Below, piece after piece: positions 34,575 through 42,067 of a DNA stretch of 64,000 nucleotides (the stretch's first letter is position 1; each line of letters begins with the position of its first letter). Source of the stretch: Deltaproteobacteria bacterium (lineage in GTDB: Bacteria; Myxococcota_A; UBA9160; UBA4427). The translations under genes and the position numbers were made by a program. The notes under the pieces are model-generated. The model was not told where the DNA came from. It made no database searches and was given only the letters and a program-made list of their open reading frames with translations. The stretch lies in contig PAQX01000033.1 of NCBI GenBank assembly GCA_002709835.1, positions 8,538 through 72,537 of the forward strand. The letters run 5' to 3'.

Positions 34575-35459
34575 CTAATCGAAGACGACCGTCTTGTTGT
34601 CGTAGACCAGGACCCGGCCGTCGAGGTGCCAGGACACGGCGCGCGAGAGCACGGTCCGCTCGACGTCTCGGCCCTTCCGGACGAGATCCTTGGGCGTGTC
34701 CCGATGGGACACACGAACCACGTCCTGCTCGATGATCGGGCCCTCGTCGAGGTCGAGGGTCGCGTAGTGCGCCGTCGCGCCGATCCGCTTCACGCCCCGC
34801 CCATAGGCCTGATGATAGGGCTTGCCTCCCTGGAAGGCGGGAAGGAAGGAGTGATGGATGTTGATGATCCGCATGGGGAAGGCGTCGATCATCTGCTCGG
34901 AGAGGATCTGCATGTATCTCGCCATCACGACGAGATCGATCTCGTATTCTTTGAGCAGCTCGATCTCCCGGCGCTCCTGGTCCGCCTTTGTCTCCTTGGT
35001 GATCGGGTAGACGCGGTAGTCGATCCCGAACTGTTCGGCGATCGGCTCGAGGTCGGGGTGGTTGCTCACGATCAGCGGGATGTCGCAGTGGAGCTCGCCC
35101 GAGCGGTGGCGCAGCAGCAGATCGTAGAGGCAGTGGTCGGTCTTCGAGACGAAGATCGCCATCTGGGGCACGTCGCGATCGAGGCGGAGCGTCCACTCCA
35201 TCTCATAGCGGTCGGCGACCTCGCGGATCGCGCCTTCGAGGGTCTTCTCGTCGATGACCGAGCCGCCGTCGCCGGTCGCGAGGTCGAAGCGGATGCGCTG
35301 GAAGAACTTCTCGGCGACGGAGTCGGTGTGCTGATCCGCGTCCAGGATGTTCAGGCCCAGCGCAAAGAGCAGCTGGGAGAGGGCGGCCACGAGACCCGGT
35401 CGATCATCGCAGCTTACGAGGAGCGTGGCGGTCGTCGAGTCTTTCGGGGGCGTCGGCAT
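34575..35459 (-). CDS. purU: formyltetrahydrofolate deformylase
   Basis: ACT domain (LLVSCDDRPGLVAALSQLL) plus a formyltransferase core (IINIHHSFLPAFQGGKPYHQA..GVKRIGATAHY). Start is ATG 35459. Confidence 0.92.
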   Translation of the reverse strand: MPTPPKDSTTATLLVSCDDRPGLVAALSQLLFALGLNILDADQHTDSVAEKFFQRIRFDLATGDGGSVIDEKTLEGAIREVADRYEMEWTLRLDRDVPQMAIFVSKTDHCLYDLLLRHRSGELHCDIPLIVSNHPDLEPIAEQFGIDYRVYPITKETKADQERREIELLKEYEIDLVVMARYMQILSEQMIDAFPMRIINIHHSFLPAFQGGKPYHQAYGRGVKRIGATAHYATLDLDEGPIIEQDVVRVSHRDTPKDLVRKGRDVERTVLSRAVSWHLDGRVLVYDNKTVVFD

Positions 35460-35623
35460 CGGGGGTCTCCTCGGGGGAATCCGGCGGGGAAGGGTAGCCG
35501 AGAGCCGGAATCTGGCGAAGTACGCCGTTGCCTTCCCCCCCGAACTATGGCCGCCCCCGGAACCCTTGGATAGATTGTGGACAGGGAATTCACTCATTCC
35601 CGAGTTCACCGCGGCTCGTTCAT

Positions 35624-35966
35624 GGGGGCGAGTCGTGGGAGCGGCCCGGAGGGGCGGTTACGGCGACCACCTGAGCCCGGGAACCAGGCATGCGCTTTGG
35701 GGCGCATGCTCATCCATACCATGCCGACTTTGGGAGGTAAGAATGGACCAACGTAGCACTACGGCGAGTGAGGTGGTGGCGTCCTAGCAACGCTGAACCG
35801 TTTCGTCGAAATAGCTAGGTGCTGCGTGGGACGCAGGTTCCCAACGCCGCCGCCCCTGGGATCGCGGATGTCGTAGCCGCTGCGGGGTCAACCGACCTGA
35901 TCCCAGGGACTTTCGATTCATCAGGAAGCGCGTGACTGCCGAGCAGTCGCGCGCTTCCTTCGTTTC
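35624..35966 (+). ncRNA. candidate structured RNA of unknown class (about 340 nt), ending at an intrinsic terminator
   Basis: 616-bp gap without a credible ORF on either strand. Helices: 35688-35709 (8 bp), 35822-35836 (6 bp), a 10-bp closing helix 35854-35863/35899-35908, and terminator 35924-35958. The 5' end and the strand are inferred only from the orientation of the U-tail. Confidence 0.35.
35924..35966 (+). terminator. Rho-independent terminator (plus-strand orientation)
   Basis: GGAAGCGCGUGACUGC-CGA-GCAGUCGCGCGCUUCC forms 16 bp (one G-U), followed by UUCGUUUCC. On the minus strand no U-tract follows the hairpin. Confidence 0.5.
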
Positions 35967-36075
35967 CGGGGTTGGATGGGCTCCGGTTCTCGAGGGGACG
36001 CCGGGGGGCGGCGCCCCCTTCGCGCGCAGGTTCAGGCCCGTCGCCCGGCTTTGCCGAGGCAGGGCCGTCGCGGTG

Positions 36076-37032
36076 TCAGCGGATGGCGAGTGGATTGATC
36101 GGTGAGCCGACGGCGCCGGTGATCGGGAGCGGGGGCGCCGTGAAGAGGAACGCGTAGCGGAGGTCTTCGGCGCACGCGGCGGCCAGAGCGTCCATGTGAA
36201 AGATCTCGCCGAAGAGGACGCCGGTGTTCCGCAGGGAGATCATGTGTAGCGGCTGGAAGCAGTCCTCCGTCTCGTTCGGGATGACCTCGATCCCCCAGGT
36301 GTCCGTGCAGACGGCGGCGACTTCGCGGTCGAAGAGCCAGCCCGAACAGTGGACGGAAAGCCCCGGCGCATTCCCTCCGCAGTATCCGTCCCACGATCCC
36401 TCGTCGAGGCAGCGGGTCATCATGCCCGTGCGGACGAGGACGATGTCACCGCTCTCGATCGTCACGCCCTGCGCCTCCGCGCACGCATCGAGATCATCGG
36501 GCTTGATCGGGAAGCCGTCCTCGAGCCAGAGTTCGCCGCGATGACGTGGGAGGTCGAGGAGTACGCCGCGCCCGACCACGCCGTTCTTCACGACCTCGAT
36601 TCCGTTCGCGCGCGCGCCGCGGCTCGTGACGAGCTCGATGTCGCGATCGTTGTACATCTTCCCGTCGTAGAAGACGTGGGAGAGCGCGTCCCATTGCGTT
36701 CCGCACTGGAGCGGCATCGTCACCGAGTCGTCCGCATAGCGGAAGCCGCCCGGGATGCCGTCCTGCGCGCCCGCGAGGACGTCACCCCCATCCTGGAGCA
36801 TCACGTGGATCGGATTGTGCCGCCCCCCGGCGCCGCTCTGCGGACCCTTCTGGTCGAAGTTGAGTCCACACGAGATGACCTGGCCGCGACGGGGCAGGGC
36901 GGTCGCGGCGAGGATCCGCTCGGGGGTGATGAAGTTCAGCGCGCCGAGCTCGTCGTCGGGGCCCCAGCGCCCCCAGTTGGAATAGCGTCGGCCCCATTCG
37001 CGTACGGTGTCGGCGGTAATCTTCGCGCTCAT
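36076..37032 (-). CDS. cyclase-family protein (kynurenine-formamidase-like fold)
   Basis: ...GTQWDALSHVF... and ...GRGVLLDL...GDIVLVRTG...PGL...D.WG.E are patterns of the putative cyclase family. The ATG overlaps the kdsB stop (ATGA). Confidence 0.85.
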   Translation of the reverse strand: MSAKITADTVREWGRRYSNWGRWGPDDELGALNFITPERILAATALPRRGQVISCGLNFDQKGPQSGAGGRHNPIHVMLQDGGDVLAGAQDGIPGGFRYADDSVTMPLQCGTQWDALSHVFYDGKMYNDRDIELVTSRGARANGIEVVKNGVVGRGVLLDLPRHRGELWLEDGFPIKPDDLDACAEAQGVTIESGDIVLVRTGMMTRCLDEGSWDGYCGGNAPGLSVHCSGWLFDREVAAVCTDTWGIEVIPNETEDCFQPLHMISLRNTGVLFGEIFHMDALAAACAEDLRYAFLFTAPPLPITGAVGSPINPLAIR

Positions 37033-41991: not shown

Positions 41992-42067
41992 TGGCTCCCC
42001 GGGCAGGACTCGAACCTGCGACAAGGCGGTTAACAGCCGCCTGCTCTACCAGCTGAGCTACCGGGGA
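41992..42067 (-). tRNA. tRNA-Asn (anticodon GTT), CCA encoded
   Basis: The reverse complement folds as a cloverleaf: TCCCCGG TA GCTC AGCTGGTA GAGC A GGCGG CTGTTAA CCGCC TTGTC GCAGG TTCGAGT CCTGC CCGGGGA G CCA. 76 nt, anticodon loop CU-GUU-AA. Confidence 0.95.

Follow-up and report, generated by a model that had tools for sequence, protein, structure and literature searches.

By analogy of design, the closest functional counterpart of the RNA described here appears to be rreB, one of the rre small mRNAs (rreB, rreR) of the alpha-proteobacteria. This mRNA of 165 nt, whose ORF encodes 14 aa and whose Shine–Dalgarno (SD) sequence has 17 nt, binds 30S subunits, is weakly translated and depends for its stability on the start codon (Hahn et al., RNA Biol 2017, PMC5711450). 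The RreB peptide is unstructured and its overproduction gave no phenotype, and the function of rreB is still elusive (PMC5711450).

A second described system is Ms_IGR-5 (RF02471), an actinobacterial sRNA first found in Mycobacterium smegmatis, where IGR-5 is ncMSMEG15794c. Li et al. are said to have first isolated it, in 2013, by foreign-Hfq pull-down. In M. smegmatis, IGR-5 is a validated, uncharacterised, NAD-capped sRNA between MSMEG_5794 and MSMEG_5795 (bioRxiv 10.1101/2021.12.14.472595); ribosome footprints lie on Ms_IGR-5 in this species and on its homologue in M. abscessus (PMC4974804), and Ms_IGR-5 has been seen by RNA-seq in Streptomyces (PMC8079986, PMC8780764).

Here we compare with these systems a locus in the window, by which we mean the whole stretch of 64 kb of DNA that was analysed. 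We consider it fairly probable that the locus is an independent gene for a structured, translated RNA of ~330 nt, one of the 'ribosome-docking mini-mRNA' type that is remotely related to Ms_IGR-5 and extended at its 5' side.

Boundaries, strand and distribution of the RNA gene

The gap that holds the RNA spans 35460–36075 and is bounded by the purU start on one side and by the end of a putative cyclase gene on the other, flanks that the preliminary description had placed correctly. The features of the locus, in window coordinates, are:

34575–35459, minus strand: purU, with the domains Formyl_trans_N and ACT
35545–35576, plus strand: putative promoter region, with the block CTATGGCC (35545–52), a 17-nt spacer and the −10 box TAGATT (35571–76)
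35548–53, plus strand: weak −35-like TGGCCG, overlapping the block CTATGGCC
35854–35908, plus strand: predicted three-way-junction terminator, its stem CCCUGGGAUC / GAUCCCAGGG closing around P10 and a variable hairpin
35864–80, plus strand: P10, GCGG[AUGUCGUAG]CCGC, inside the terminator stem
35886–97, plus strand: variable hairpin, inside the terminator stem
35924–35967, plus strand: GC-rich 16-bp hairpin (stem 35924–58) followed by UUCGUUUCC, outside the conserved element
36076–37032, minus strand: putative cyclase gene, convergent to the RNA gene
41992–42067, minus strand: tRNA-Asn (GTT), the only Rfam or ARAGORN match in the 64-kb window

When the gap was compared by BLASTN with 40 relatives, 35580–35914 was found to be kept at 81–95% identity in 24 of 24 genomes of the genus, and at 70–77% in the majority of the order's other families. 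Judged by such comparison, the gap holds a conserved RNA gene on the plus strand, at ~35583–35914, with a putative promoter and terminator of its own; the predicted RNA is ~330 nt long, and at its centre lies a conserved 14-codon frame that is also the core of its predicted fold. Two statements of the preliminary description gave way here, namely that the gap is 'ORF-free' (it carries this conserved ORF, with an SD, at 35743–35787) and that the element extends over 35624–35966. Its proposals of a stand-alone, structured plus-strand RNA that is no 5' leader, of a highly structured region, and of a sequence that could not be matched by eye to RNase P, SRP, 6S, tmRNA or common riboswitch cores were sound: the next gene on the plus side is convergent; the folding energy of 35600–35975 is −191 kcal/mol on the plus strand (z = −4.8 against dinucleotide shuffles, with z = −3.8 for the minus strand) and relatives carry compensatory changes; and Rfam searches of the window with 1.6-kb and 231-nt segments at E ≤ 10 gave nothing relevant, including no match to RF02471. 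The label of a novel or unclassified RNA stood in part, in that no Rfam family matches the window element, but not in full, in that the element appears to be a remote relative of the catalogued Ms_IGR-5.

The promoter block and a CGATAnnTT −10 are conserved across 37 relatives, and at the corresponding columns of the alignment the Nitrospirota members show canonical −10 boxes of the type TGnTATAAT; transcription would thus begin at ~35583. Both promoter and terminator were recognised only through comparison of relatives, and a consensus promoter/terminator scan of 35300–36300 called nothing, the 16-bp hairpin included. As a separate observation, the block CTATGGCC, which reads CTCTAGCC in other families, is a conserved feature of the interval from the purU start to the −10 box of the RNA. 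It could be a weak −35 of the RNA; its minus-strand reading, CATAGT, could serve as the −10 of purU, in which case the divergent promoters would overlap and could exclude each other.

In the strand test, 92.9% of the pair cells pair when read on the plus strand versus 87.2% on the minus strand, and 588 G–U cells stand against 151 A–C cells. Since this G–U excess comes together with a U-run after the terminator stem, a −10 box and an SD with its ORF, we assign the RNA to the plus strand.

Of 401 genomes sampled from the phylum, 53 contain the exact core, in single copy and almost always in the window's own order, and a reversed control pattern gave zero matches in the same 401 genomes. Nitrospirota MAGs were also recovered by a scan for the 18-nt core motif, and about 100 of the 119 loci of the pattern scan are matched by an nhmmer profile, most of them at full length. 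The Nitrospirota carriers are a narrow lineage; in a sample of that phylum the family model finds the RNA in two of 150 genomes. All Myxococcota genomes searched have one copy each. With the family model R1, which was built only from Myxococcota and Nitrospirota 3' domains, the Nitrospirota genome of locus L048 gives a second, much weaker match at G526:C81:19383–19551 (45.8 bits, versus 139.9 for the main copy), which may be a diverged paralogue.

The RNA is also carried by MAGs labelled Spirochaetaceae/Spirochaetales (L050, L053, L054, L057, L095, L100, L110, L111 and L117), Gemmatimonadota (L079), Geobacter (L060) and Alphaproteobacteria (L068). Most of these have an adjacent Myxococcota-type purU (L079 has none), and one 'Spirochaetaceae' isolate is named HK-STAS-MYXO-51. 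Such labels are probably wrong or outdated, and not a sign of wide transfer.

The mini-ORF and the helices built around it

The translation signals in the window are:

35732–38, plus strand: Shine–Dalgarno sequence GGGAGGU, a 7-nt match to the order's 16S tail GGAUCACCUCCUUUCU
35743–35787, plus strand: 14-codon ORF, ATG...TAG (stop at 35785–87), encoding MDQRSTTASEVVAS, with the SD upstream

In a first count by script, 103 of 107 sequences had an SD, a start and a frame of 14–15 codons. Alignment A1, which comprises 104 distinct full-length copies, has an SD, an in-frame ATG, GTG or TTG and a stop in all 104, the frame being 14 codons long in 97 and 15 in seven. Along a tree of the RNA the stop codon has been exchanged at least 19 times, in every case for another stop, ATG, GTG and TTG have replaced one another as start codon at least four times, and the length of the ORF has changed three times, by one codon each. 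The variable codons 2–5 occur as 63 distinct segments, each of 12 or 15 nt; these codons are free, and position 12 of the peptide is A, V, D, E or G. Since the peptide is poorly constrained while the frame is kept, we argue that selection acts on translatability and not on the peptide; the ORF appears to be a translated-looking mini-gene, kept as an ORF while its peptide drifts. In other lineages the SD of the family matches 8–15 nt of the 16S tail GGAUCACCUCCUUUCU; the match of only 7 nt in the window does not speak for strong '30S docking' in this genus.

The structure model has 67 pairs in 12 helices, three of them long-range, and was tested on the 104 distinct sequences. Of its 6815 pair cells 92.3% pair, versus 43–51% when partners are slid by 1–3 columns; double-sided, compensatory changes are found in 33 pairs, and none of 500 shuffles reached the observed measures. 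Compensatory changes back the nested helices P1–P5, P9 and the variable arm P11, and P10 has one compensatory pair, in one sequence. The local elements are:

35584–35601, plus strand: P1 hairpin, GGGAAU[UCACUC]AUUCCC; four of six stem pairs compensatory
35604–35642, plus strand: P2, hairpin of variable length closed by GUUCAC / GGGAGC; four of six closing pairs compensatory
35645–49 / 35677–81, plus strand: P3, CCCGG / CCGGG, enclosing P4; four of five pairs compensatory
35652–58 / 35666–72, plus strand: P4; five of six pairs compensatory
35661–65, plus strand: invariant CGGCG in the P4 loop
35688–35709, plus strand: P5 hairpin, GCAUGCGC[UUUGGG]GCGCAUGC; five of six pairs compensatory, with a conserved YUGGG loop
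35722–26, plus strand: UGCCG, which can pair with the P4 loop CGGCG; 99.6% maintained
35779–35793, plus strand: P6 hairpin, GCGU[CCUAGCA]ACGC, with the stop codon in its loop; 87% of cells pair
35828–31 / 35839–42, plus strand: P8, GGGA / UCCC; holds in 85–104 of 104 sequences

Within P2, a U–G pair (columns 70/188) is present in 103 of 104 sequences. The pairing of UGCCG with the P4 loop passes from G–C to G–U in 41 sequences, with changes on one side only. The helices that the preliminary description had read from this one sequence fared unequally. Its 8-bp hairpin at 35688–35709 is real and covarying, and is P5. Its 6-bp hairpin at 35822–35836 can be formed by this sequence, yet no more than 26–73 of 104 sequences keep its pairs, and the overlapping P8 is conserved instead. 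The long-range complement that it had noticed (CCACC at 35667–71 with GGUGG at 35772–76) can pair in 89–104 of 104 sequences but fails where P4 covaries; since it breaks with P4 covariation, and since the same GGUGG also pairs with 35846–51, it is at best an alternative conformer. Its 10-bp helix (35854–63 / 35899–908) is real, with compensatory changes in eight of the nine pairs of the family stem and 99.6% of cells pairing, and we take it as the terminator stem of the family because a U-run directly follows it in relatives. In this genome that U-run is degraded to CUUUCGAUUC (35910–19). The 16-bp hairpin, which had been put forward as a strong plus-strand terminator, is a real hairpin but is common only to the closest relative (L003), and is thus not the terminator of the family; it may serve as a back-up terminator in this genome. 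An origin of the segment 35912–36075 as a repeat element was ruled out, for the segment occurs once in the genome.

Three long-range helices converge on one segment of the ORF:

35759–35777, plus strand: hub CUACGGC / GAGUGA / GGUGGU, in the 3' half of the ORF, complementary to three distant elements
35870–76, plus strand: P10 loop GUCGUAG, with hub CUACGGC; 99.3% paired
35590–95, plus strand: P1 loop UCACUC, with hub GAGUGA; 98% maintained, nearly invariant
35846–51, plus strand: G+CCGCC, just before the terminator stem, with hub GGUGGU; 99.2% paired, nearly invariant

In particular, the helix between the hub and the P10 loop has changed from G–C to A–U in 16 sequences and from C–G to U–A in three, via G–U intermediates, and these changes alter the peptide, with A replaced by T or V at codon 8. 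Loci L038 and later were collected through the hub motif, so that the invariance of the hub in them is partly a matter of ascertainment; the covariation with the P10 loop is no such artefact, since that loop lies outside the motif used for fishing. The pairing with the P1 loop is almost invariant and therefore offers no test by covariation, and the helix with 35846–51 is supported by wobble changes only, with no compensatory ones. Besides these helices, about half of the distinct sequences carry UAG or GUAG in codons 4–5 (columns of 35749–35765). This UAG can pair locally with the CUAC of the hub, as the P10 loop does, and a hairpin competing with the first hub helix is possible; it also accounts for the frequent stops of the +2 frame, seen in 34 of 63 segments.

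Counted from the start codon, the hub starts at +17, at the edge of a 30S footprint, so that an ORF occupied by a 30S subunit or a 70S ribosome should be incompatible with the closed fold; we infer from this model that folding and translation of the ORF may well be mutually exclusive. Given such exclusion between the compact fold and a ribosome on the ORF, the RNA would act as a ribosome-gated conformational switch, and among modes of action we suggest this as the likeliest. By binding or translating the ORF, a ribosome would unfold the core and free the loops, and without translation the core would close; what matters would be ribosome binding or translation itself, and not the peptide.

Neighbouring genes and rival explanations

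In ~70 loci purU is divergent and lies 50–230 nt from the 5' end of the RNA. One clade and, apart from it, a single further lineage have purU on the strand of the RNA, 15–312 nt downstream and past an intact stem and U-run. The arrangement of purU has changed at least twice independently (a single clade is rejected, p = 2e-5), so that the adjacency of RNA and purU has outlived rearrangement. In some Nitrospirota the gene upstream of the RNA is MTHFR; purU was not found near the Nitrospirota and actinobacterial relatives. The M. smegmatis neighbour MSMEG_5795 is an Rv0812-type ADC lyase/D-amino-acid transaminase of folate synthesis (PMC8105722), and at the best-scoring RF02471 locus (L157) a class IV aminotransferase gene lies immediately upstream. 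The linkage to purU, MTHFR and ADC lyase suggests a tie to folate and one-carbon metabolism. This link was drawn post hoc, since most actinobacterial neighbours are unrelated to folate: the actinobacterial loci show no conserved synteny, and their neighbours include citrate synthase, ligA, serA, acyl-CoA dehydrogenase and LmeA. Duplex energies between the RNA and the purU translation start, computed by a crude method, were no better than those of shuffled controls (mean z = −0.13).

A further step, which we offer as speculation and hold to be a long shot, is that the RNA senses the capacity for translation initiation and so ties ribosome loading to one-carbon metabolism. With formyl-Met-tRNA and 10-formyl-THF replete, the mini-ORF would be initiated efficiently and ribosomes would keep the hub unfolded; this would free the P1 loop (which is anti-SD-like), the P10 loop and the CCACC strand for targets or, as an alternative output, alter the divergent promoter of purU where the two overlap. 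On failure of initiation, the RNA would snap into the closed fold. Such a sensor would explain why purU, MTHFR and ADC lyase lie beside the RNA in three phyla.

Four other explanations have to be weighed against the structured, translated RNA that we favour. According to the first, which we regard as unlikely, the transcript is an mRNA for a bioactive 14-aa peptide and its structure only tunes stability or translation. The ORF is clearly selected to stay open and a C-terminal motif, T-x-S-E-V-A-A-S, is conserved, but the conserved C-terminal codons are kept at synonymous sites too, the change of A to T or V at codon 8 is compensated in the P10 loop despite the altered amino acid, and the peptide varies freely at position 12 and in codons 2–5. 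Moreover, the actinobacterial relatives share only E-V of the motif, and the RreB peptide, unstructured and without an overproduction phenotype (PMC5711450), argues in the same direction.

Considering the arrangement of purU, we also weighed a cis-acting leader or attenuator of that gene, in which translation of the leader ORF controls read-through of the terminator; this would fit the clade and the lineage in which purU follows on the same strand, as well as the adjacency kept across the order, and yet we judge it improbable. With purU divergent in the window, as it is in ~70 further loci, the RNA cannot belong to the purU mRNA; the plus strand here has no following gene, the next one being convergent; the Nitrospirota and actinobacterial relatives have no purU nearby; and no obvious antiterminator competing with the terminator stem was found.

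Quite improbable, in our view, is an untranslated sRNA that acts by base-pairing or by binding a protein, its ORF being a chance product of structural constraints. Base-pairing does cover most of the ORF, the SD-like GGAGG/GGUGG and the CCACC could be purely structural partners, and Ms_IGR-5 was reportedly pulled down with a foreign Hfq. An accidental frame is hard to reconcile, however, with at least 19 switches from stop to stop and zero to a sense codon, a start that is always ATG, GTG or TTG in 104 sequences, indels only in multiples of three, and ribosome footprints on mycobacterial Ms_IGR-5 (PMC4974804).

Finally, a 5' UTR or riboswitch of purU on the minus strand, suggested by the position of the element directly upstream of purU on that strand in most genomes and by a minus-strand fold better than shuffles, is very improbable and was rejected on the G–U/A–C counts, the lower pairing of the minus strand and the plus-strand signals, given that the U-run follows the stem on the plus strand only, that this strand also carries the −10 box, the SD and both the start and the stop codon, and that tandem loci have the element turned round with respect to purU.

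Comparison with known RNAs

tmRNA (RF00023) resembles the RNA of the window in being a structured RNA of ~350 nt, with pseudoknots around a short frame and a stop codon in a hairpin; unlike the window RNA, it has a tRNA-like domain and neither an SD nor a start codon. Identity with tmRNA was rejected, for the element gave no ARAGORN or RF00023 match and a normal tmRNA lies at G000:C24:11335–11702. 6S RNA (RF00013) is a rod-like hairpin of ~180 nt with a central bubble, whereas the helices of the window RNA make up a multi-domain fold; it was rejected because its architecture is wrong and the covarying helices form no rod. RF00013 had zero matches in the whole genomes of 21 relatives, by a search whose control was weak (five of 14 control genomes matched).

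The relation to Ms_IGR-5 is carried by covariance models. Seven of 12 family members match RF02471 at 19.9–40.8 bits, in the right place, on the right strand and over the full model length, its positions 1–184 aligning to the 3' half of the relatives; the Rfam gathering cut-off is 45 bits, which no family member tested reaches. In the reciprocal direction, R1 finds 15 of 25 actinobacterial RF02471 loci at full length and at the exact coordinates (E 9e-6 to 0.1), and an nhmmer search of the actinobacterial loci with the Myxococcota profile gave zero matches, so that the Myxococcota and Actinobacteria groups are bridged only by covariance models. From these reciprocal matches, the family appears to be a remote, 5'-extended relative of Ms_IGR-5. 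Over the 3' 190 nt the succession of parts is common to both and collinear with the model: a strong SD, an ORF of 12–14 codons with a GAGGUGG core and, further downstream, the UCCC..AG..CACC strand and the terminator stem CCCCGRGAGC; the actinobacterial ORF likewise has 12–14 codons and ends in ..EVAA-x. Ms_IGR-5, too, stands alone as a gene and has a promoter and a terminator of its own. It differs in several respects. The additional 5' domain of ~150 nt (P1–P5), with the P1 loop docking on the ORF, is found only in the Myxococcota/Nitrospirota form; the actinobacterial RNAs start ~15 nt before the SD, whereas the window has this structured domain between promoter and SD, and the actinobacterial copies can be said to be without it since their promoter (−10 box) lies just upstream of the SD. 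The actinobacterial SD matches 16–17 nt of the 16S tail, in contrast to 7 nt in the window, and in the window family the terminator forms a three-way junction with an inner loop that pairs to the ORF, which Ms_IGR-5 does not share.

The rre mRNAs, like the window RNA, are stand-alone, small and structured, and both families have a tiny conserved ORF around a ribosome-binding site, GTG starts being common. The window RNA is a stand-alone small mRNA with a conserved ORF within the 14–25 codons of the rre class; the class is further defined by a stretch upstream of the ORF that is complementary to the 16S tail over at least 16 nt, where the window reaches 7 nt and its relatives up to 15. The rre RNAs are 160–180 nt long and the window RNA ~330 nt, and a hub of three long-range helices is present in the window family and none has been described for rre RNAs. 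No sequence similarity to rre was detected, and the CC2171 model (RF01867) had no match in the window or in the relatives searched.

To these systems our analysis adds the covariation of the hub, the turnover of stop codons, the reciprocal model search, the distribution among lineages and the folate-gene neighbourhoods. The last are a first physiological lead, for which M. smegmatis IGR-5 offers a tractable model, and the opposition of ribosome occupancy and RNA fold is a concrete, testable one. RNAs built around a ribosome-binding site and a tiny frame are thus found in several phyla, as rre, as Ms_IGR-5 and now in Myxococcota and Nitrospirota; among them the variant in the window is anatomically the most informative, since the frame itself is the hub of three long-range helices, one of which is backed by compensatory changes that alter the peptide, which argues that translation is selected and the peptide is not.
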